From: a virus | Strand: one strand, 5' to 3' | IMG/VR virus record: IMGVR_UViG_3300024520_000003 | Span: 6,745 to 70,744 of that record | DNA: 64,000 nucleotides | In this document: positions 4,103-58,695 of the stretch, in pieces | Layout of the letters: each line of letters starts with the position of its first letter | Numbering within the stretch: the stretch's first letter is position 1 | Made by a program: the position numbers and the translations under genes | The notes under the pieces: generated by a model | What the model was told of the DNA's origin: nothing | Seen by the model: the letters and a program-made list of their open reading frames with translations, nothing else | Databases searched by the model: none

Positions 4103-4261
4103 GGTTTTCTTTCCTTCTGTGGCAAGTTGGGCACACGTTGTCGGTGATTGTTTCTTTCCAAGCGAGATGGTCGCGTCTTTTGATTATCCGTTCCATGAGG
4201 ATTCCCAATAGGCAAGACGCGACCACCCATGCAATAACATAGGCGGTCGCACTGCCGAGCA

Positions 4262-5221
4262 TTACTCTGCTCCCATCATGGACTGAACTTCCCTCACAAG
4301 TTGCTCAGTATCGCTGGACAAAGACTCAACCAAGTCCTCCGAAATCTCTCGATAGAGTTCCAGTTGGCATTTCAAAGCAAGTGCTTCCTGAATAGTCTTT
4401 TCCTTCGTAGACTCGCGAGTGGACTTCGTAAACTCCGCTACCTTTTCACGAATTTCCTTGATACCACTCTCAAACCCTTTCTTCGCTTCAGAGGTAATGG
4501 TCGCCCGTCCCTCTGGGTGATTAGCAGCAGGGATGATTGACATGTGAGTTCCCTCACCGCCGATCATCTCAATCACATCGCGAAGTTTCTGAAGGTCTTC
4601 CATTCGAGAAGCTGGCACGAAGTAAGCGTGACCAGACTTCTTCAAACGAATCCGACCGAAGTGCTTCAGTGAACTACGAATCATCTGAGAAATATCAGGT
4701 GACGTGAAAAGCCCTTTTCGTCGATTCCATTCATCCAAAATAGTAGCCGCAACAGGATTGCTTGGTGTTACGGTACACCCACCACTTTGATCAGCCGCCA
4801 CTAGAAGTGGTTGACCTGGGTTGTTTGGATCGTCTGGGAAGAATCCCAGCTTCGCCAATGGTTCACCCAACTCAACGTCACGCTGCATAACGGGTTTTTC
4901 TTCACCCGTTACGCTGACAGGGTAGATCCCCCAAACGTCATGGGTTGGTTCAGACGAGATGCGAATGACTTGTGCATCTGCAACTCCTACCGAACCTCGC
5001 CCGATAACATAAGCAAACACCTTTCTCGCTGAAGGTAATGATGGTAGATGGATTTTTGACAACCCAACCTTATCAAAATACTTTTCCAAGTCGGTATCTG
5101 TAACAGATGCTTCAGATCCTACGTCATAGAATGTAGTCGCCCCAATATACCCAGTCTTATCACCGAGTGCTTTTTGGCTGCGTGAGATTTTATCAATAGT
5201 TTTCTTAGCTAAAGTTCCCAT
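4262..5221 (-). CDS. hypothetical protein, resembles DUF3150/DUF6744-type partners of AAA/VWA modules
   Basis: 319 aa, GxxYFVP motif, helical C-terminus, upstream of the AAA-VWA pair; family assignment is from recall only. Confidence 0.5.
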   Translation of the reverse strand: MGTLAKKTIDKISRSQKALGDKTGYIGATTFYDVGSEASVTDTDLEKYFDKVGLSKIHLPSLPSARKVFAYVIGRGSVGVADAQVIRISSEPTHDVWGIYPVSVTGEEKPVMQRDVELGEPLAKLGFFPDDPNNPGQPLLVAADQSGGCTVTPSNPVAATILDEWNRRKGLFTSPDISQMIRSSLKHFGRIRLKKSGHAYFVPASRMEDLQKLRDVIEMIGGEGTHMSIIPAANHPEGRATITSEAKKGFESGIKEIREKVAEFTKSTRESTKEKTIQEALALKCQLELYREISEDLVESLSSDTEQLVREVQSMMGAE

Positions 5222-5223
5222 TT

Positions 5224-5844
5224 TTAATCATCCTTTTCATTCATGCGTTGTGTGACAAGTTCAAGAGCCTCAGAACTAGCTTTGCCAAATGCAGACTTAA
5301 CTCCATCAGCAAGCTCTAGTTTCATAAGCCCGTTCTCGGTCTTAAGAGTCCCCAGTCCAAATACCGCGAGTGCGGTTCGGATATTTGTCAGTTGAGATCC
5401 AAGCGTCACCTTGCTCTTTCCCTGCTTACACCCGAGGCTCTGGCTGTATAGGTCATCCATTGAAAGACCGTCTGGATTCCAAAGCAACAGAGATAAAATC
5501 TGCGCCCATGCGACATGATTTCTACTGGGTCCAGATGGTCCCCGTTCTGATTTTTTAGCAGTCTTTTCAGCATGGTTTTCCCGTGCCTGAGAAATCAACG
5601 AGTTCATGTCCAACACAGGGGTCTTCTTCCCGTTGCCTTTGCTTGAAACCTTTGGGGTCTTTAGCTCAGACGCAGTTCTGATTGCCTTTTGAAGAAGTGA
5701 TGGCACTCCTTCGCTTTTTTCGACCTCTATGTCATTGTCTTTTAAGAACTTGACCAGATCCTTTCGTGGCTTTGCAGCGAAGTGATCTGCGACTTGTTCT
5801 GTTGTTAATTGTGATAAATTCATGTTTTCTAAAATCCTTATCAA
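5224..5844 (-). CDS. hypothetical basic protein, possible C-terminal winged helix
   Basis: 206-aa ORF, Lys-rich linker, helical C-terminal domain. Confidence 0.55.
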   Translation of the reverse strand: MIRILENMNLSQLTTEQVADHFAAKPRKDLVKFLKDNDIEVEKSEGVPSLLQKAIRTASELKTPKVSSKGNGKKTPVLDMNSLISQARENHAEKTAKKSERGPSGPSRNHVAWAQILSLLLWNPDGLSMDDLYSQSLGCKQGKSKVTLGSQLTNIRTALAVFGLGTLKTENGLMKLELADGVKSAFGKASSEALELVTQRMNEKDD

Positions 5845-5998
5845 TAGTCAAAGTTGGCTAAGATTCTCGAACGAAAACCTTAGTGGGTTAGAAACCCAGT
5901 TAGCACATCCACACAAGTGATTGAGCTAACTGAAACTCTAAAGCCTAGTTCTTCAATTACCCGCAGAGATGTGAGGTCTCCGAGGGTAATGAAAGTCA

Positions 5999-6664
5999 TT
6001 AAGGGCAGGATGGGCACCGGGAACCATATTCCTCAATTTCCCACTCACCACATTTACACGTTTCACCAACGGCAGCAGGTCTGAGAATAGAGCGTCTTTT
6101 CTTCCTAACCAGTCGAGGGTTTCCATCTCCATGCTGACCTAACTGAAAGTCGTTCTCCCACTTCAAATCAAACTCCACGGCTCCCGACTCAAGAAAGCAT
6201 TTAGGAAGTCCCTTTTGAGCAAGAAAGTCTGACTCGTCTTCCAAGGTTCCTGGAAGCAATACCAGCAGATTATCGAAAGTCATATATCCTATGTCGACTT
6301 CATCTTCATGGCCCATAAAGACGCAATCATACTTGTTCCTCAGTTGTTTGAAGATATTTCCACTCACGGGTTCGTATGTTATTCCCTCGACGTGACAGAT
6401 ATGAGTGTCCTCGTAATTCTCAAAGGAGTCTTCATACTCGCGACCGATATAATCCGCATACATGTCACGTTCTTTGATAAGCGCATCTCTATCTTTTTCA
6501 AGGTGATCGATAATGTGAAGGTAGTTTGCCTCCTTCACTCTTATGAACATATCCAACATGAAGAAGTCTTTCGCTTTTCGAGCATCCTCAATGTGTTTGT
6601 CAATCTTAGATTCCTGAACTCCGTCCATTGGAAGCATTCCATGTAAAGTTTGAACCTGTTTCAT
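5999..6664 (-). CDS. hypothetical protein
   Basis: 221 aa, GAGGTG RBS, ATGA coupling, Cys-rich C-terminus. Confidence 0.6.
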   Translation of the reverse strand: MKQVQTLHGMLPMDGVQESKIDKHIEDARKAKDFFMLDMFIRVKEANYLHIIDHLEKDRDALIKERDMYADYIGREYEDSFENYEDTHICHVEGITYEPVSGNIFKQLRNKYDCVFMGHEDEVDIGYMTFDNLLVLLPGTLEDESDFLAQKGLPKCFLESGAVEFDLKWENDFQLGQHGDGNPRLVRKKRRSILRPAAVGETCKCGEWEIEEYGSRCPSCP

Positions 6665-7155
6665 TTTGTCACCTCTTTCATTTCTTCTAAGTGTTTGACA
6701 TGTTTGGAAACTTCAAAAGCAATTGAGTTGCTTGTGTTTGCCGGGACTCCGCACACATTTAACGCGCCAGCAGCGTCGACGTTGTTATAGCCAGTGCATG
6801 TCATTAGATGAAACGCATACCGACGGGCTGAGTTATCGCGCTCAGTGGAGCAACCGCCTATGGACAACCCAAGGTCAGGTCTCTCGCCTCTCATCACGCA
6901 GTCATATTCGAAGTCAATATCCTCAGTCATATATTCAGGAAGTAATCCTTTCAGCAAATAAAGCATTGTAGGGTGCTCCTCGGTCTCGTTGTTGATTTTA
7001 TTCACTCGCATCATTGCTTTCGCAGTGACCTCTGCGTCATCCAGGTCGTTCGTGAAGTAGGTTGCGTTCTTTCGGGTCTTGATTCTAACTTCGTACTCGT
7101 TGACGTCGTTGAGGTGAAGTGTAATTCCGTACCCGAAGTCTTTTATCTTTTTCAT
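6661..7155 (-). CDS. hypothetical protein
   Basis: 164 aa, preceded by AGGAGCACGACC. Confidence 0.65.
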   Translation of the reverse strand: MKKIKDFGYGITLHLNDVNEYEVRIKTRKNATYFTNDLDDAEVTAKAMMRVNKINNETEEHPTMLYLLKGLLPEYMTEDIDFEYDCVMRGERPDLGLSIGGCSTERDNSARRYAFHLMTCTGYNNVDAAGALNVCGVPANTSNSIAFEVSKHVKHLEEMKEVTK

Positions 7156-7187
7156 GGTCGTGCTCCTTGATTCATTTATAAGTGGGT

Positions 7188-7493
7188 TTAGCTTTTGAGT
7201 TGATAGACCTGTCCGGTCCCATAACTGTTTGCAATGTCAACAATGACGCCAGCTTTCAATGCAAGGTTGATACAGGTGCCAAGTTGGTTTTGACACATCT
7301 CATATTGAAATTGCAGGCAATCGGACTTCTGTCTCTTACCCGCAGCAACCCACCAAGCCACATGCAACCGTTTGAAGCGGACACGGGGGTTCTCTCTGCC
7401 GTCATTGATCTGCCATTGCAGAAGTTCACGAAGCAAGCTTACAACTGCTTCAATCATCAAGGTGTTCATCTGGTCTTCGTAAGTGTTTTTCAT
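7188..7493 (-). CDS. hypothetical protein
   Basis: 101 aa, preceded by AGGAGCGCGACACC. Confidence 0.6.
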   Translation of the reverse strand: MKNTYEDQMNTLMIEAVVSLLRELLQWQINDGRENPRVRFKRLHVAWWVAAGKRQKSDCLQFQYEMCQNQLGTCINLALKAGVIVDIANSYGTGQVYQLKS

Positions 7494-7510
7494 GGTGTCG
7501 CGCTCCTTGG

Positions 7511-7738
7511 CTAAAGGTATTTTTTGAAAAAATCGTTGTTCTTCTTCTTGAGTTCAGCGTCTTCCTGAAGTCGCTTTTCATACTCCAGGATCTCAGCAAT
7601 ATCCTCGTCCGCTCTGAGGAGTCTCAGCCCCTTAAGTCGGCGGTCTTTGTTGACTTTTGCCATCGTCTTTCCAAGTTTGTAGCCCTCCAGCATCGCTCCC
7701 TTCAGGCGTCTTTCGTTATTAGATTTGTTGTTGTTCAT
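7511..7738 (-). CDS. hypothetical basic protein
   Basis: 75 aa, GGAG RBS, ATGA coupling. Confidence 0.55.
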   Translation of the reverse strand: MNNNKSNNERRLKGAMLEGYKLGKTMAKVNKDRRLKGLRLLRADEDIAEILEYEKRLQEDAELKKKNNDFFKKYL

Positions 7739-7962
7739 TTTTGCTCCAGTAAGTGTTGGTGCATAAGTCTTCCGAGAATCACCCGTGCTGCGTTCAGACG
7801 GGCTGGAAAACGATGCGTTCTCCCGGTCTCAAAATCGTTGATTGTTTGAATAAGTAGGTCTCTTTCCTTCTTATTGAGTTGGTCTTTGTAATCGTTTCCT
7901 AGCGCAGCGTTGAAATTGTCGTACTCCCGCGCTCTTCGTATCAATCGTCCAAGCTCACTCAT
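7735..7962 (-). CDS. hypothetical protein (start moved to 7962, MSELGR...)
   Basis: GAGGAGCACGACAATG gives an RBS-led start inside ORF 7735..8067 and removes the overlap with the upstream gene. Confidence 0.6.
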   Translation of the reverse strand: MSELGRLIRRAREYDNFNAALGNDYKDQLNKKERDLLIQTINDFETGRTHRFPARLNAARVILGRLMHQHLLEQK

Positions 7963-8030
7963 TGTCGTGCTCCTCGGCCCGGGAAACCCGGGCCAGTTGA
8001 TTTGATTTTCAGGATTGTAATGTTGTTGAG

Positions 8031-8279
8031 TTATGCGGGTGTGCAAAGGAAAGGTGATACGGTCCATACTCCGCCAACCTCATGCTTGCGTTTCCGTCCT
8101 CGCTCTTCGAGAAGTTTCACTTTCAAGTTCTTAAGGTTGACCTTAACAACTTCACCCAAAGATTGTTCACCGTGCTTGCGTCCAAAATAAACTCGGTCGC
8201 CAGTTTTGAATTTCTTGTTGTTCTTTTTCTTGTTTCTCTTTATTTCATTTTCCATTGCTTTTTGAAGTTTGCTTTTCAT
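8031..8279 (-). CDS. small basic protein, SH3/KOW-like; first gene after the early promoter
   Basis: FKTGDRVYF...GEVVKVNLKNLKV...WTV pattern; GGAGCACGAC directly before ATG at 8279. Confidence 0.6.
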   Translation of the reverse strand: MKSKLQKAMENEIKRNKKKNNKKFKTGDRVYFGRKHGEQSLGEVVKVNLKNLKVKLLEERGRKRKHEVGGVWTVSPFLCTPA

Positions 8280-8291
8280 GTCGTGCTCCAT

Positions 8292-8750
8292 GCCCTCTCG
8301 GGCTGCTATGTGGAATTAGCTCCACTATTAAGGTCACCCCCGTTAGGCGGTGACCTCCGTAGTGTCTCCAACTACGTCCTCTGTCATCAGCACAGAATCG
8401 AACTGTGCTTATCGCTCCAGCGATGCGTCGGTTGTTTTTTTGAACTCCTTGGTGCCCATGCGCCTTCTCCGTTTAGCCTCGCCGTCCTGGGGGCCTCACA
8501 GTTTCCGTATTCCTGTCACATGATTCTCAATCCGTGGTTCTCTCACTCTCCCTGGCTGGCGGCGTCTGCTGGCATGTTAGGCTTCTGCTCGCGGCCCTTT
8601 GGAGGCTCCCGGTTTCGTTTTCTCTCTGGCCGGTTGGGTTGGCAGGTCGGGCGATGGCTTTCATCTCATCGTGGCTCCCGGGTGTTCCTGCTGCCCTTGA
8701 ATTATTCAGTTGTCAATTGCGGCCTGGGTGAAAATTTTTCCTCCCCCGCA
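8292..8750 (-). ncRNA. candidate structured leader / non-coding RNA (~460 nt)
   Basis: No minus-strand ORF of 60 aa or more; chain of hairpins including a TTCGATT T-loop arm (8389-8409) and a GAGA tetraloop (8292-8303); directly downstream of a consensus promoter. Confidence 0.5.
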
Positions 8751-8815
8751 ATTATATTGTAACATCGCCCTTTATCTTTTGTCAAGCATTTATTTTTAGA
8801 TAAAATAAAGGGGGT
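8751..8815 (-). promoter_or_regulatory. sigma70-type early promoter
   Basis: TTGACA (8785-8780), 18-nt spacer, TGn-TACAAT (8761-8756), overlapping TATAAT (8756-8751), AT-rich UP-like tract upstream. Confidence 0.8.
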
Positions 8816-8826
8816 TTTTAGCTTAT

Positions 8827-9699
8827 TTATGAAGGATCTTTGAAGTGAGAGAACTGGTAGACACCGGCTGGGAGTATTGATTTCATGGATTGGAGTAACA
8901 GGTCGAACACTGTTCCAGATCCAAGGTAGGGAGGGTGGGGACCACCGAAGGCGTCATCCTGTCCTGATTCAGACTCATCTTCCTGGAGGTGACCACCATA
9001 GGGTTCGTTGGCTGGTCTTGGACCTGCGTTCGGTTGAAGGTATGTCGCGGGAGATAGCTCTAACTCAGCGGTGAAGTTTATATAAACCTTACACGCATCA
9101 CTAAGAGCGGTTCGAAGTATGGTGTTCACATATTCCGGTTTATTGAAAATAGAATACTCAACGGGAAGAGTGCTTTTGGTGACTTCGTTTCCTGGAGTTG
9201 GTTCAGATATAAAAAAAGAACAGGTATTCACTTTTATCTGTTGAAGGAGGTTGAATCTGGCGAGTAGATCTCCAGACGACCAATAACCTGTCTTGATTCC
9301 CGATATGTGAACGTCATTTCCTACTATATCAACCACCATGTAATAGGTTTCTTGGATCTCAATAATCCTTCCAAGAATTGCATCATCTGGTGGACCGGCG
9401 ACGATTGTTAATTCTGTGTCTGATTTAACCAGGAACTCAGTTTCTTCATCTAATGATCTAGTGGCTTCTCTGAGAAAATTGAATAACGTCTTAAAGGTTC
9501 CACGATGGCCCATTGACCCAGCGTTGAGTGCGGCTCTCCAGGAAGGTTTATGGTATAAGTCGAGGAAAGGGATTCCATAAAAGTCACTCACACTCCGCAG
9601 CGTAGTTTTTCCCTCAAGGCGGAGAACTACTGTATCGAAAAACGCTTTAGTCGACTGGCTTATAGCTTGAAGCATCGTAAACAACTTCCTCCGGGTCAC
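8827..9699 (-). CDS. putative baseplate/tail protein (last late gene; start probably 9675)
   Basis: Position at the end of the tail module; GGAGG upstream of the ATG at 9675. Confidence 0.5.
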   Translation of the reverse strand: MTRRKLFTMLQAISQSTKAFFDTVVLRLEGKTTLRSVSDFYGIPFLDLYHKPSWRAALNAGSMGHRGTFKTLFNFLREATRSLDEETEFLVKSDTELTIVAGPPDDAILGRIIEIQETYYMVVDIVGNDVHISGIKTGYWSSGDLLARFNLLQQIKVNTCSFFISEPTPGNEVTKSTLPVEYSIFNKPEYVNTILRTALSDACKVYINFTAELELSPATYLQPNAGPRPANEPYGGHLQEDESESGQDDAFGGPHPPYLGSGTVFDLLLQSMKSILPAGVYQFSHFKDPS

Positions 9700-10540
9700 C
9701 TATCGTGAATTTCCAAACTTGATCTGAAGGACTCAATGTTAATCCAGTGAAACTAGTTGATGTCTTACCAGAATAGTCAAACCTTAAGCTTCCGACGAAT
9801 ATAGAACCAGAGTCAGTGAATCCAATAGTTGTCTCGACTGGGAGAGAACCACTTCCTGCGGGAACGTCTGACGTGATTCGGGTAACTGGATTTCCTATGA
9901 CTTTTTGAACTGATTGACCCATAGCAAGTGTCAGACATTCAAGTGGGTTTAGTTCCTCGGGTGCTGAGGGAACTATTAACATGTGAAGAAGGACTGCTCC
10001 GGTTTTATAATATGGAGGCATCCGAAGTCTGCCTCTTAGCGCCGGTCGGCATCTGTTTCTATTCACGACCGTGTATGCGTTGGGGACTGTTATCTCTTGT
10101 CCAAATCCAGGACCGTATTCGAGGATCAGGTGATAAACGCCTGGAGGACATGATGGGGATGCAAACTTAATAGTGTCTTCAGCACCTACTGGACCGTAGG
10201 GGATCAGTGAAGTCTTGCTTCCGGGTTCAGCGGAGTATAGGAAGTCCGCATCAGGGTACAGGTTATTCGTTGCTGAGTTCTTAAACCTTGCTCTGAATAC
10301 AGAGTCTGGAAATCCGTTGACGCAAACGGCCTCACATACCCACCCACCTTCATCAGGAAGAAGTCCGTTTGCAGGGAATAGAACTAAACCTGTGAATTTA
10401 TCTGAGGGTGAACCCCAGCCAGTGTCTATCTTCCCGCCGAGATATCCTACCGGGGTGGGACTGCCGTATCCCCAGTCGTAAACGACTTGACCGGTTACGC
10501 CTGGAGAGACACTGCTTGGACTGCCATATCCCCACTCCAT
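9647..10540 (-). CDS. putative virion/baseplate protein with N-terminal WGYGSP repeats
   Basis: WGYGSP twice plus GWGSP; beta-rich; tail module context. Confidence 0.5.
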   Translation of the reverse strand: MEWGYGSPSSVSPGVTGQVVYDWGYGSPTPVGYLGGKIDTGWGSPSDKFTGLVLFPANGLLPDEGGWVCEAVCVNGFPDSVFRARFKNSATNNLYPDADFLYSAEPGSKTSLIPYGPVGAEDTIKFASPSCPPGVYHLILEYGPGFGQEITVPNAYTVVNRNRCRPALRGRLRMPPYYKTGAVLLHMLIVPSAPEELNPLECLTLAMGQSVQKVIGNPVTRITSDVPAGSGSLPVETTIGFTDSGSIFVGSLRFDYSGKTSTSFTGLTLSPSDQVWKFTIGDPEEVVYDASSYKPVD

Positions 10541-10545
10541 CTATC

Positions 10546-11685
10546 TTATACATTCCTCTTGCAAATGATTGTGACTGTTCCAAAAGATGATGCGGCGTGA
10601 ACACCTCCAGCCCAGTCTTGTTGAACGTACACTGCGAGAACTTTTCTTTGTCCGATCACCGTGTTCAGGTTAGTGGCTTGTTGATAGGTCGCCGCGCCGG
10701 GGTTTGCTGGCGCGGAAGCACTTAGGGAACTGACGAGAACTGCCCCTGCATAGTCATTCACTTGCCACTGTCCTTGAGTCATCACATATAACCCGAATTT
10801 CAACTGACCACCTAAACTCGAATCACCTCCATTTCTTAAGGAGACTGAGAACTCGTTAATGGTTCCAGAGATTTCGTTTGATATGAACCCCACATGGGCA
10901 GTGTTTTCGTTCACTGTGGTTTGAGGCTGTAACATGAGTTTCCCGGGAATATACCCATTAAGAGTATTAGTCCCTTCAATATTTGCTGAGTAAACGGTGA
11001 ACTCGTTATTTAGAACCTTCGGATTGACTGGATTCAGTGGTGCTTCATCGAGAGTGACGGAGCCATTTTCAGTTGTGGTTGCGGGATCTAAGGTTTCCAC
11101 TGGGTGTTTGTGAAGTGAGACGCCTCCAGCGGTTCCATTCTGAGTGGCGTAGACATTGTTCATCAGGTTGTCTAAATGCGGTCCAGTCGATGTGACTAGC
11201 GCAACGTCTGCTATCTCATTTACGGTTCTGGTCTCAAAGTCCCCACGAAGGTCATCAAGATGTGAAGTTACTCTTCCCGCATTAACTCCCCAGTTTCTTT
11301 GACCATCAGCAAGCATCTCTAGGCTTGAGTTGGTGTATTGGACCGTAGCTACACCAAACGCACTGTCAGGAGCGAGAAGAGGGTCTGTTTCGCTTGCTTG
11401 GTTCTGGTCGTCTATTACCGTGAGAAAGACACGAACATTCCCAACCGCGTCGATATTTTGGATCGTTGGGGTTTGAAGGGTGCTTGTCTGTCCAGGGTTT
11501 CCGGTTCCATCATCGGCGAATTCTGCACTTGATGAGTTCGCCTTGGAAAGAATGAACCACGATCTGGAAGTTATCGCCGCCGCACCTGCTCCGGGTACTG
11601 ATGAATCAGATAACACCTTTGTGCCCGGGAGATTTGCTTGTTGGATTGCTCCTATTGCGTCGATCACTGCTATTGGTGCTGCCAT
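10546..11685 (-). CDS. putative tail fibre/receptor-binding protein with PKD/Ig-like N-terminus
   Basis: APIAVI...DSS...ITSRSW...VFLTVIDD PKD-like pattern; Ala/Gly/Thr/Asn-rich. Confidence 0.55.
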   Translation of the reverse strand: MAAPIAVIDAIGAIQQANLPGTKVLSDSSVPGAGAAAITSRSWFILSKANSSSAEFADDGTGNPGQTSTLQTPTIQNIDAVGNVRVFLTVIDDQNQASETDPLLAPDSAFGVATVQYTNSSLEMLADGQRNWGVNAGRVTSHLDDLRGDFETRTVNEIADVALVTSTGPHLDNLMNNVYATQNGTAGGVSLHKHPVETLDPATTTENGSVTLDEAPLNPVNPKVLNNEFTVYSANIEGTNTLNGYIPGKLMLQPQTTVNENTAHVGFISNEISGTINEFSVSLRNGGDSSLGGQLKFGLYVMTQGQWQVNDYAGAVLVSSLSASAPANPGAATYQQATNLNTVIGQRKVLAVYVQQDWAGGVHAASSFGTVTIICKRNV

Positions 11686-11696
11686 GAGGAACCTCC

Positions 11697-13427
11697 TTAG
11701 GTGGTCAACCTTGCGTTGACAGTTAGTCCCAGTGAAATATCATTTGCGAAATAGTTGTTCCCGCTTGGTAACCCACCATGATAGTCCATTATCTTGTATT
11801 CGTAATTCAGTGCTATTACAGTTGGTGACGCATCCGATGCGTTCAAGGTTCCGTATTCACTCCAGGGTGCCCAAAGGTTACCGGATGCGTTTGCAGGTCC
11901 TTCTACCCCCCAGTTTGGGGTATTGTAGACCCTTAAGGCGGGAGTCAGTGTGGCAGTTCCATCAATTAGTCCTTGCGTGTTAGTCACAGCGAGATTCACA
12001 GATACAAGTTGAACACTTCTGTCGATTCCCTTTGAGTCCTTGTAGACCGGAGGGGTATCCAGTTGAATTCTCATTTGTCCAAAATAATGCACCCAATTCC
12101 CCAGATGCAGAACATATGAATTCGCCATCCATTGAAGAATGGTCATTCCATACATCTCTTTCATGGTAGCAGTTGCCAGCCAGTCAGTATTGGGTGTCGA
12201 GCTTCCCGATCCACCACCAACCACCCAGCCATTAGCGTAGATGAAGTAGTCCTGACTTGACGGGTTTCCGTAAGCAAACTTAGGACTCTCGACAAGAGGC
12301 ATCCATGCCTCGCTCTCGGGAGACGCGATGTCGAATGTTCGTGCTTTGTAGCAGGTATCCGCATCACCGAGCATTTCAGCGACATCCCCAAGGGTAACTC
12401 TTGGAATTGAATGAAACCGGGTGTTCGTTAGGGTGTTGTCTGAATTAACACGGAGTGAATCGGGATATTTATAATAAGTGCTCGTCGAGTCAGGATCAAA
12501 GTGAAGTATCCTAGACAATTGAAGTCGGATGACATGTAACTGATGAGCTAAACCGTGAGATCCATATTGTGACGTGCAGAGAGATGAATCTGGGTGAAAG
12601 GCATCAGCACTGTCACCGAGGTACCCAACGTCCGTGAAGAGTTGGTTTTCGTCTGCCTGAACGTCGGTCACAATGGGATTCAGCGGATACTCGTCTATGT
12701 TCGTTGCGCTCCAGACTCTTTTGGTTTTTGCGTGAAGCTCGGGGGTGGCGTTGGTGTTTGGGTCTATTAAGTCCAACTGGCCGATTGTCTGATAGTAGCT
12801 AAATGCCCATATCGGAGTTAAGTCTGCCACACCTCCTGACCATTTGACTTTCCCTATCAGGCACCAGTCCCCAGAGTTGTCTGGTGCTGCTGGTGCTGCT
12901 GCCGGTGGTCCAGTGTATCCAACCACGTTGATCTCTGAGATATAAGGTCGCCGAATAGTTTCATCCGAAAACGTTACCTCGGTCCCTAAATTTGCATCCC
13001 ATTTTCGTCTAGTGTCTATGTCAGTGTCTATGTTTGACACTTTTGCAAATATGAATCCTGGTGTAGACGTCACTTGAAGAACTCCAAAATCAAACACGAT
13101 GTCGTTGATATTTCTATCGTGTCTAACGAAGACTCCCGTTCTGCCTATTGATCCAGCGCGGACATTTTGTGCTCCAGATTCAGGAACAACAGAAACACCA
13201 GCGTCGATACATTTATAGATGACGCAATCGTCGAGTCTGTATTCGTGAGGGAGTGCGTTATTGGCAGTTGATATTAGAAACCTTTCACCGACCGCTATTC
13301 CCTGACTGAGACCTATAAGACTTCCAAATGCCCTGTCCAGGTAATTGTAGATCAAGTCCTGAAGTGCATTTGCATCCGGTATGTCCAAACGCTCGTCATC
13401 GTAGAAAATTACCTTGTCTTTGCTCAT
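11697..13427 (-). CDS. putative tail fibre/baseplate protein
   Basis: 576 aa, directly after baseplate J; N-terminal attachment-like region and beta-rich C-terminus. Confidence 0.55.
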   Translation of the reverse strand: MSKDKVIFYDDERLDIPDANALQDLIYNYLDRAFGSLIGLSQGIAVGERFLISTANNALPHEYRLDDCVIYKCIDAGVSVVPESGAQNVRAGSIGRTGVFVRHDRNINDIVFDFGVLQVTSTPGFIFAKVSNIDTDIDTRRKWDANLGTEVTFSDETIRRPYISEINVVGYTGPPAAAPAAPDNSGDWCLIGKVKWSGGVADLTPIWAFSYYQTIGQLDLIDPNTNATPELHAKTKRVWSATNIDEYPLNPIVTDVQADENQLFTDVGYLGDSADAFHPDSSLCTSQYGSHGLAHQLHVIRLQLSRILHFDPDSTSTYYKYPDSLRVNSDNTLTNTRFHSIPRVTLGDVAEMLGDADTCYKARTFDIASPESEAWMPLVESPKFAYGNPSSQDYFIYANGWVVGGGSGSSTPNTDWLATATMKEMYGMTILQWMANSYVLHLGNWVHYFGQMRIQLDTPPVYKDSKGIDRSVQLVSVNLAVTNTQGLIDGTATLTPALRVYNTPNWGVEGPANASGNLWAPWSEYGTLNASDASPTVIALNYEYKIMDYHGGLPSGNNYFANDISLGLTVNARLTT

Positions 13428-21420: not shown

Positions 21421-21441
21421 TAGGTCGTGCTCCTTCTTGGT

Positions 21442-28223: not shown

Positions 28224-29747
28224 TTAGAATGAAACGTTATCGATGATTCCGCATTTTGTCGGGACCTTCACATGAAGCGAACCAAAAAGCATAAGCAAGA
28301 ACGGAATAGAAGTCGTTGCCTGGGCTAATGGACGCCGGAGAAAATCTAATAGCTGTGCCCAATACATTACACCTGGGTCCATCTGTAACAGATAGGCTTG
28401 ACCAGTCGAAGGACGATGCAAGTTCTCATCCACGATAACAGTCGCAGCAGCAACGGTCGGGTTTCGGGGAAACTGCCACATGTACGTTGCAGAGTCACCA
28501 TCGGTATTCCCAACAGCAGTTCGATAGACACGGTAGTAGCGAATTCCACCGGCACCTGAGATAGGTTGAGCGGCGTCACCCATGGTAAATGTCACTTTCT
28601 GACCAGCGAGAACCGTGATGGTTGTCTCGTTGACACCAGTAAGGACTTTGACCGGGGCAGTAATTCCCTTATCACCAACACCAACGAAACGATATCGGTA
28701 ACCACCGGCATCGGCTGCGCCGAATTTGCTAGTTCCAGATGCAGCTTGAGCTACGTTTGCAATTGGGAGCGTGAAGGTACCGGGATCACCGAACGGATCG
28801 GTGTTTTGATCTGCACGATTGGTTGACAAAGGAGCTTGCTCGATTGAAACCATTCCACCCGGACCAGCGATTGAAAGTCCCTCTGACCCGAATACCAACT
28901 GCGTGGAGTTGGAAGGGGACATTTGGAAACGACCAAAGCTTGTCGCGATGTTCACGAGCTTCGCGTAGACGCGAGGATCGAGCATAATCGTGTTCACATA
29001 ACCAAAGTTTGGTGCAGCGGCTACGTCATAAAGCTTGTTGATCAAGTCTTGAGGAGTAAGCTCGGCACCATCAAGGTTCAAGTAGTTAGAACCGTTTGCG
29101 GCGATTGTGTGAGCACCTGTTGCGCCATCGTAAGTCGGTTGAGCGACTTGCTGATAAAGACCGTCAAACTGAAGACCTTCACCACCGGCACCTTCTACAC
29201 CCATGAGTGAAGAACCGAGGAACAGAGCGCGCTCCAACTTACCCATGAGGGCTTTGGTGCCATCAATAGTCTGTTGAGCAAGACCCTGACGACTAACACC
29301 ACCAGAGTATCCCATGATTCCCGCCATTGTGGCGACATCGGTAATTTCTCTCTGTTCGGCAAGGTACTTCACCTTGACAATTTTACGAGTATAGGTGCCG
29401 TCAGAATTAGTACCGTTCGCGCCTTCTGCAATGAAGGGGTCCAGGTCCATATTTCCGTATGCACTGACAACCGTGCTTTCATGCAGAGGGCTAGTTACGT
29501 TGACTTTGGTGAGTTTCTTCCAAAGCTTCACCGCCATCTCGCTATAGGTAGCAGTATCAAGCGTGCTTTGAATGCTCTGTGGAACCAACGGAGCGAAACT
29601 ACCACTACCAGCCTGACCTTGAGTCGGGTAACCAGCGGATGCTTTAGCCATCGGTGCGCCACTTGCTTGAAGTGCCTTGTTTAGATCTTGAAGTTCGTGC
29701 ATCGAGACTGATTGTCCAGCCAGTGCACTGAGGGATTGCAAATTCAT
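28224..29747 (-). CDS. major capsid protein
   Basis: KASAGY N-terminus, LERALFLG, LQFDGL, C-terminal QLLDFLRRPLA...LMLFGSL...P.K; 507 aa after protease and scaffold. Confidence 0.88.
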   Translation of the reverse strand: MNLQSLSALAGQSVSMHELQDLNKALQASGAPMAKASAGYPTQGQAGSGSFAPLVPQSIQSTLDTATYSEMAVKLWKKLTKVNVTSPLHESTVVSAYGNMDLDPFIAEGANGTNSDGTYTRKIVKVKYLAEQREITDVATMAGIMGYSGGVSRQGLAQQTIDGTKALMGKLERALFLGSSLMGVEGAGGEGLQFDGLYQQVAQPTYDGATGAHTIAANGSNYLNLDGAELTPQDLINKLYDVAAAPNFGYVNTIMLDPRVYAKLVNIATSFGRFQMSPSNSTQLVFGSEGLSIAGPGGMVSIEQAPLSTNRADQNTDPFGDPGTFTLPIANVAQAASGTSKFGAADAGGYRYRFVGVGDKGITAPVKVLTGVNETTITVLAGQKVTFTMGDAAQPISGAGGIRYYRVYRTAVGNTDGDSATYMWQFPRNPTVAAATVIVDENLHRPSTGQAYLLQMDPGVMYWAQLLDFLRRPLAQATTSIPFLLMLFGSLHVKVPTKCGIIDNVSF

Positions 29748-58665: not shown

Positions 58666-58695
58666 TATGTCGTGCTCCTACAGAATCACACTCTG

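Follow-up and report, generated by a model that had tools for sequence, protein, structure and literature searches.

A uridine-poor early leader ending in a hairpin cluster in a marine phage genome

The early operon of phage T7 is transcribed from host promoters, begins with several hundred untranslated bases and carries an RNase III site before its first gene. Its early RNA is punctuated by structure, and the RNase III-type hairpins are long, irregular and about two helical turns in length. Here we describe a stretch of about 460 nucleotides (nt) from a marine phage, which lies at positions 8292-8750 of a 64,000-nt window (bases 6745-70744 of the 70,744-nt IMG/VR record IMGVR_UViG_3300024520_000003) and which, on the minus strand, forms an untranslated leader between a promoter and the first early gene (gene 1, ATG 8279). 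The locus resembles the T7 leader in having about 450 nt between a strong sigma-70 promoter and a small first early gene, with strong hairpins ahead of this gene and between early genes. It differs in its single promoter, its extreme depletion of uridine (U) and its six short perfect hairpins in place of one long irregular hairpin, although hairpin 4 of the leader can be extended to 19-nt arms with 79% complementarity (8364-8323).

The ompA leader has a 5'-terminal stem-loop that stabilises the mRNA. Likewise, the phage leader has a stem-loop a few bases from its inferred 5' end, but it is much longer and its body is depleted of U; we know of no such body described for ompA-type stabilising leaders. 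In the lambdoid nut site, which is the loading site for N, a boxA core lies upstream of the boxB hairpin, whose short GC stem carries a GNRA-like loop and which is bound by an arginine-rich peptide. The put RNAs, in turn, act through the beta' zinc-binding domain of RNA polymerase. According to PMC9378689, each put RNA is a pair of stem-loops of about 70 nt in total, found immediately past PL or some 270 nt past PR, and put of HK022 is made of two long bulged stems plus a triplex. With put the leader shares adjacent stem-loops past an early promoter, in a phage relying on the host polymerase; in contrast to it, the abutting hairpin pairs of the leader measure 36 and 46 nt, have perfect stems and are set within a leader of 460 nt.

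Two domains of the leader

The leader consists of a U-poor, unstructured body followed by a hairpin cluster and is not one structured RNA. Folding of 120-nt windows between 9200 and 7600 revealed a sharp split: z-scores stayed between -1.1 and +1.4 from 8760 down to 8361, whereas the three windows over 8440-8241 reached -6.9 (the lowest, -6.93), -5.2 and -4.7. Folded alone, 8440-8752 gave a z-score of +0.94, with 81 of 100 shuffled sequences folding at least as well, while 8270-8445 gave -5.58 and was equalled by none of 200 shuffles. The z-score of the entire leader (-2.31) is due to its last third. A sequence-only reading of this DNA had described about 460 nt of highly structured RNA. Two thirds of this length turned out to be shuffle-like, so that the description as exceptionally structured applies to the 3' third; the long-range pairs proposed in the same reading are located in the part without fold support. 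Folding no better than shuffled sequence, which the reading had named as a ground for giving it up, was found for 8440-8752 and not for the hairpin cluster.

The body stands out by its composition. The RNA of 8440-8700 contains 32% A, 32% G, 28% C and 8% U, and the seven 250-nt windows of the genome with the lowest T content all fall within the body (genome mean 23.2%, standard deviation 3.9). In 8440-8714 there are three UU dinucleotides against a mean of 16.1, a number as low in 19 of 2819 windows, no UUU and a single RNWUU site against a mean of 4.1. The GC content of 200-nt windows over 8300-8699 is 56-59%, compared to about 0.47 for the genome, and the C/G ratio is 1.2-1.4 across 8713-8583. 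A literature search on U-depleted phage leaders returned nothing comparable, though published cases may nevertheless exist.

The 3' third is occupied by hairpins. Within 8292-8440 we counted five perfect hairpins (stem of at least 5 base pairs (bp), loop of 3-10 nt) with 31 paired bp in total, while 2000 dinucleotide shuffles of the cluster contained 0.63 such hairpins on average, four at most and in no case five. By perfect-hairpin count the cluster ranks first among 1412 genome windows, and by folding z-score it ranks second among the 491 windows scanned, which covered the genome up to base 29,400.

The cluster also repeats a short motif. UGGAG occurs four times and UGGAGC three times in the 162 nt of 8279-8440. 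For UGGAG the shuffle mean is 0.28 (p 0.0002), any 5-mer reaches four copies with p 0.022, and three copies of UGGAGC were seen in none of 5000 shuffles. Four copies of UGGAG are present in just 2 of 3530 genome windows, both at this locus, and the motif is found ahead of just 2 of 73 gene starts. Among the four copies is the ribosome-binding site (RBS) of gene 1, the GGAG of which (8289-8286) is unpaired in the minimum free energy (MFE) and centroid folds; another falls entirely within the loop of hairpin 3 and a third mostly in the loop of hairpin 1.

The leader is preceded by a promoter that matches 11 of 12 consensus positions of the sigma-70 hexamers plus the TG extension. It is the top-scoring such site in 5000-12000 and the only promoter within the leader region. 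Judged from its position, transcription would start at about 8752-8748, a few bases from the 5'-terminal stem-loop, and the predicted transcript has a G5 run at its 5' end and is 64% purine. In two sequencing runs an A>G variant at 8716 would disrupt one pair of this stem-loop, a call made with no sequencing-error control. The elements that the sequence-only reading had listed here, namely an early promoter directly upstream, the 5' hairpin, the hairpins between 8424 and 8292 and a 9-mer occurring twice (CCGGGAGCC), were all recovered (Table 1). Two copies of the 9-mer arose in none of 2000 mononucleotide and none of 2000 dinucleotide shuffles.

Table 1. Features of the leader and of gene 1, with positions in the window
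Feature	Position	Strand	Sequence or remark
sigma-70 early promoter	8756-8785	-	-35 TTGACA 8785-8780, 18-nt spacer, TG-extended -10 TACAAT 8761-8756
5'-terminal stem-loop	8715-8753	-	AATTGCGG ... CCGCAATT, with inner pairs; MFE and centroid folds
U-depleted body	8440-8714	-	base composition; structure at chance level
CCGGGAGCC, copy 1	8673-8681	-	sequence and shuffle test
CCGGGAGCC, copy 2	8604-8612	-	69 nt downstream of copy 1
45-codon open reading frame (ORF45)	8527-8664	-	inside the U-poor body
16-codon open reading frame (ORF16), putative	8409-8459	-	MGTKEFKKTTDASLER; GGAG 7 nt upstream
Hairpin 1	8411-8424	-	ATCGC-TGGA-GCGAT; UGGAG copy in loop
Hairpin 2	8389-8409	-	AGCACAG-TTCGATT-CTGTGCT; inner 17 nt identical to a tRNA T-arm
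Hairpin 3	8358-8376	-	CGTAGT-TGGAGAC-ACTACG; UGGAG copy fully loop-exposed
Hairpin 4	8331-8356	-	AGGTCACC-GCCTAACGGG-GGTGACCT; two further inner pairs
Hairpin 5	8310-8325	-	GTGGA-GCTAAT-TCCAC; UGGAG copy across 5' arm and loop
Hairpin 6	8292-8303	-	GCCC-GAGA-GGGC; 4-bp stem, GNRA-type loop, 2 nt before RBS
Gene 1 RBS and spacer	8279-8289	-	GGAGCACGACA; last A is the A of ATG 8279-8277
Gene 1, 82 amino acids (aa)	8031-8279	-	Lys-rich N-terminal helix and 58-aa small beta-barrel domain

We tentatively read the stretch as a cis-acting untranslated leader of the early operon that would stabilise the mRNA and control the translation of gene 1, and we rate this somewhat below an even chance. If the leader is transcribed as the promoter suggests, the 5'-terminal stem-loop would cap the transcript and the U-poor, unstructured body of about 275 nt would offer few U-dependent signals: no U-tracts for intrinsic termination, few UU-containing sites of the RNase E type and fewer start codons than average. 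A uridine signature of RNase E cleavage is described in PMC5222698, and a body that is free of U-tracts and poor in UU fits it. The six back-to-back hairpins end 2 nt before the RBS, which is exposed in the predicted fold. The additional UGGAG(C) copies, three in number and two of them displayed in loops, could recruit the 30S subunit, or a protein that also recognises the RBS, or compete with the RBS for it. Together, these parts would preserve the first transcript of the infection and set the translation rate of gene 1.

Several points weigh against this reading. Stabilisation leaves the length of 275 nt and the high C and G content unexplained, and the scarcity of RNWUU is not extreme, with equally few sites in 388 of 2819 windows. 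The UGGAG enrichment is just a lead because it was noticed post hoc from the sequence, and GGA itself is not enriched (17 in 459 nt against 13.3-15.4 expected, p 0.14-0.33). The strain-level relatives described below show no clear extra conservation of the leader, and, since no homologue was found in the collections searched, sequence comparison does not demonstrate selection.

Hairpin 2, gene 1 and readings that involve a binding partner

Hairpin 2 shows the canonical T-arm pattern of a 5-bp stem and a 7-nt loop of the TTCRANN type, its own stem being 7 bp long. The 17-nt core CACAG-TTCGATT-CTGTG is present in at least 120 genome stretches of GTDB from many phyla. The sampled genome sites have a tRNA-like context with a 3' strand ending in CCA, which the phage lacks, and outside the core no more than 4 nt of flank are identical between the phage and any one of 121 sites among the matches listed. 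ARAGORN found no tRNA or tmRNA gene in the window and Rfam no tRNA or tmRNA match there. Compared with a tRNA, the leader lacks the acceptor, D and anticodon arms as well as the CCA, and the stem has 7 bp instead of 5. Given the core without shared flanks and the negative ARAGORN result, hairpin 2 merely looks like a T-arm. The tRNA-like T-arm of the sequence-only reading thus stands as far as its letters go, which are identical to those of real T-arms, and falls as far as its surroundings go. A tRNA fragment or an attP site was excluded on the basis of the flank identity of at most 4 nt and of the missing acceptor strand and CCA.

The identity to real T-arms lends some appeal to a trans-acting non-coding RNA or decoy, in which the leader or a piece cleaved from it would titrate a host factor. 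Possible targets are a T-arm-binding enzyme, a tRNA-targeting defence nuclease, the 30S subunit, a CsrA-type protein (through the GGA or UGGAG loops) or Rho (through the C-rich segment with the C/G ratio given above). The UGGAG(C) copies in loops and the 17 GGA in 459 nt speak for such a role, and, should the promoter prove as strong as its sequence suggests, no other RNA would be made in larger amounts when infection begins. However, the T-arm is the only tRNA-like part, the GGA number is at the level set by composition and repeats are below shuffle level with no tandem array, whereas sponges usually repeat their site. With CsrB/RsmZ-type sponges and leaders under CsrA control the phage leader shares GGA-containing loops upstream of a GGA-containing RBS; it differs from them in that GGA is not enriched, no Rfam sponge family matches and no hairpin unit is repeated. 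A CsrA-type sponge was dropped on the GGA count, and we regard the decoy reading as a whole as decidedly unlikely.

Processive antitermination also relies on the hairpins. Part of the cluster would bind the transcribing host RNA polymerase directly, as HK022 put does, or a small hairpin would load the basic gene 1 protein, as nut loads N, and one promoter could thereby traverse the 70-kb one-strand genome. The 89 called genes share a single strand, and a search of the genome for a T7-type RNA polymerase gave no match, a weak negative as the control matched no genome either. Directly abutting hairpin pairs lie 330-420 nt past the promoter, gene 1 opens with a Lys-rich helix, and hairpin 6 is of the same general form as boxB, although a 4-bp stem easily arises by chance. 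On the other side, the 36- and 46-nt pairs with their perfect stems are unlike the bulged stems and triplex of put, and a boxA-like core, allowed one mismatch, had 47 matches in the window, none of them on the minus strand in 8292-8750. Moreover, a second promoter zone about 9 kb downstream means that one promoter need not serve the whole genome, and gene 1 homologues occur in 22 viral loci without such a leader. We consider antitermination rather unlikely.

Gene 1 is the next gene after the promoter with a normal coding score. Its domain is that of a large family without a name, for which 461 representatives were found at E <= 0.001. The domain has the consensus KVGDxVxFGR..GEKTLGEVVKVN.K.LKVK.LE.RG...VG.VW.VPP.LC, often occurs as tandem copies or N-terminally in longer proteins and matched no Pfam or NCBIfam family. 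The predicted model has a mean predicted local distance difference test (pLDDT) of 86.6, and its best fold matches are SH3/Tudor/PWWP-like, none at E <= 0.001. A generic barrel without a match at this threshold is no evidence for RNA binding.

The RBS and spacer of gene 1 recur elsewhere. With at most one mismatch GGAGCACGACA has seven copies in the window, all on the minus strand, against 1.25 expected, a number reached in none of 100 shuffles. As read against the lists of open reading frames, six copies are followed by a start codon at a distance of 0-3 nt, the exception being 7927-7917. The extended motif GGAGCACGAC[AC] was located on the minus strand at 7156-7166, 7496-7506, 7917-7927, 7963-7973, 8279-8289, 21423-21433 and 58668-58678; these copies mostly precede the starts of unrelated genes and keep the CACGAC spacer. 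A hairpin-plus-RBS module common to all GGAGCACGAC sites was rejected, as a strong GC hairpin is found at genes 1 and 2 only. At gene 2, the perfect 8-bp GC hairpin GGCCCGGG-TTT-CCCGGGCC (7976-7994, minus strand) ends 2 nt before the RBS and parallels hairpin 6 before gene 1. Other strong hairpins of the early region lie at 200-420, at 4177-4296 (minus strand) and in a window starting at -4403. Those at 200-420 and 4177-4296 include CCGGGAGG-AATC-CCTCCCGG, which shares CCGGGAG with the 9-mer of the leader, and a long near-perfect stem directly follows the gene ending at 4262. Structured punctuation therefore looks habitual for this operon.

The two domains may also be taken as two modules of a lineage-specific takeover RNA. 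Here the U-free, unstructured runway would lead into an array that displays the T-loop and the RBS copies, and the array would capture a host machine within seconds of infection; RNA polymerase, 30S subunits or a protein that binds T-arms or the Shine-Dalgarno sequence may be the one captured. We hold this to be unlikely.

Coding potential, RNA families and relatives

The sequence-only reading had treated the leader as non-coding and had pointed to an RBS-led frame of 16 aa. Both points were borne out: all three minus-strand frames of the leader contain stops, and ORF16 was located at 8459-8409. Its last codons and stop overlap hairpin 1, the final base of the stop being the first base of hairpin 2, and its coding-score difference of 0.082 is uninformative at such a length. 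ORF45 has a coding score of 0.085 compared to 0.389 +/- 0.167 for real coding chunks (2nd percentile). It matched no Pfam or PHROG family, had no homologue and is itself absent from a collection of 5.8 billion proteins; it is probably not a gene. The plus strand holds a 226-aa frame (8082-8762) antisense to gene 1 and the leader, which is called in a public collection as protein P0154; it had no homologue but itself and no Pfam family. It is most likely an artefact of the A-poor strand, on which the other two frames are likewise unusually open. A protein-coding role for one of these three frames, for which a GGAG 7-10 nt upstream of ORF45 and ORF16 and the public gene call on the plus strand could be cited, is thus extremely improbable in view of the weak score of ORF45 and the missing homologues and families.

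The earlier statement that the leader matches no described RNA family agrees with a scan of the window with the 4227 models of Rfam 15, which include large phage-associated RNAs, riboswitches, ribozymes and sponges, and which gave no match at the gathering score. The five matches in 7900-9000 are at chance level (E 4.6-9.6) and far below the gathering scores. Reverse transcriptase (PF00078) had no match in the 70.7-kb record, in a search whose control matched 3 of 14 genomes, and the template RNA of a retron or of a diversity-generating retroelement was rejected for this reason. No internal repeat was found in the leader beyond the CCGGGAGCC pair, repeated 6-mers and 7-mers being below shuffle level. 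Tandem Repeats Finder reported no array in the leader, its sole match being 8211-8241 inside gene 1; a type III antitoxin-like or tandem-repeat RNA was rejected accordingly. With no reverse transcriptase and no repeat array, nothing points to another element class. We also noted an 11-nt perfect complementarity between AGTGAGAGAAC of the leader (8537-8547) and the 3' end of the upstream tail gene (8844-8854), which is marginal because roughly 0.2 such chance pairs are expected in a 1.2-kb region.

Searches for relatives returned no second leader. A blastn search of 8200-8850 against 50,697 phage records had no match, and a related-locus search of IMG/VR with the upstream 290-aa protein, gene 1 (as an 86-aa protein) and a 473-aa early protein found no relative. 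In the collection of 5.8 billion proteins just two relatives of the 290-aa protein were found, one of which, the 48% relative P0002, is encoded on a 13,368-nt Logan contig; a search of JGI metagenome contigs with an alignment of all three likewise yielded no relative. The T-arm 21-mer had no match in IMG/VR. The pattern of the CCGGGAGCC pair retrieved 118 stretches, none with a blastn match better than E 0.43, and the pattern made of the loops of hairpins 1 and 2 retrieved 2 viral and 29 metagenome stretches without matching stems and with blastn at chance level, the two viral ones lying in coding sequence. The structural module is common to portal relatives of 55% identity on contigs of 78 kb and 50 kb; in these, however, the 290-aa homologue is the start of a 2048-aa protein, the contig continues with reading frames and no equivalent leader site was found. 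The 22 viral loci with gene 1 homologues showed no similar leader and no blastn match below E 0.28, their lowest upstream T fraction being 0.12-0.31 and their hairpins numbering at most two.

Close relatives are confined to strain level. The runs containing the stretch are seawater and marine metagenomes, and the leader is 98-99% identical across runs from several studies. In a comparison of four DNA runs as contigs, the coverage of which excludes 8313-8511 and hence the hairpins, parts of 8512-8755 are matched by strain-level contigs of three further studies, which over 527 aligned nt show 9 differences and 1 gap, and the flanking genes differ at 15 positions in 569 nt. One contig from marine sediment (X8, depth 3) matches 8512-8750 with 5 differences and 1 gap; it lacks one G at 8608, inside copy 2 of CCGGGAGCC. 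The next 13 nt of X8 (8750-8763) diverge from the window yet still read as a -10-like hexamer, and at this length and depth the divergence may mark a mosaic joint at the transcription start.

Such a joint would suit the view that the leader has no specific function and is recently acquired or decayed DNA between promoter and gene 1. The missing homologues in every search made, the body without fold signal or repeats and a GC content that could mark a foreign origin point the same way, although the sharp divergence of X8 just upstream of 8750 is seen over 13 nt. This view has to be set against the densest hairpin cluster of the genome, with its five hairpins in none of 2000 shuffles, against the most extreme U content in a tightly packed genome and against the 98-99% identity kept in runs of several studies; it is quite improbable in our judgement. 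The leader is real, statistically unusual and an orphan, and it is seen in one marine phage lineage.

Genome setting and implications

Nearly all coding capacity lies on the minus strand, where the gene order runs from replication through portal and head to tail genes, then to the leader locus and the small early genes, which continue across the record junction back to the replication genes. Upstream of the leader the last tail gene ends at 8827. Gaps above 100 nt are rare in this densely packed genome. The earlier claim that the leader is the longest of them holds only if ORF45 is not a gene and fails otherwise. A second long non-coding gap of 431 nt is found on the minus strand at record positions 5727-6157 (window -1018 to -588). 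It is AT-rich, contains two TTGACA promoter-like sites and carries the inverted pair GTGGATAA-TTG-TTATCCAC, which resembles two DnaA boxes; this gap could serve as an origin or as a middle promoter under DnaA control.

The leader sits precisely where the tail genes stop and the early genes start, which is the place of the ends in terminal-repeat phages of the T7-like kind. This brings in a role at the DNA level, as part of a terminal repeat or first-entering end, as a runway for polymerase-driven entry or as an R-loop-primed origin, in which the composition would matter for the duplex or the RNA:DNA hybrid and not for free RNA. The purine content of the transcript and its G5 run agree with this, as does the 127-nt repeat at the record ends, which resembles an assembly overlap, lies away from the leader and probably does not mark true ends. 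Nevertheless, the gap at 5727-6157 is the better origin candidate, the cumulative GC skew has no turning point at the leader, contigs cannot reveal the ends of the molecule, and the hairpin cluster beside the RBS is left unexplained. A DNA-level element is very unlikely in our view, and the cis-acting leader of the early operon is the reading we retain.

Early leaders are the first RNA in the infected cell, and few have been studied outside the coliphages. The one described here holds both the most uridine-poor stretch and the densest hairpin cluster of its genome, and repeats the RBS of gene 1 in its loops. At present its value is that of a testable oddity and not of an established class. Should the U-free body guard an untranslated RNA from termination and decay, a design rule both simple and transferable would follow. 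Should polymerase, ribosomes or a host protein be bound by the hairpin array, the leader would be a new takeover device, and a takeover RNA of this kind, if true, would constitute a new class rather than a passive leader.

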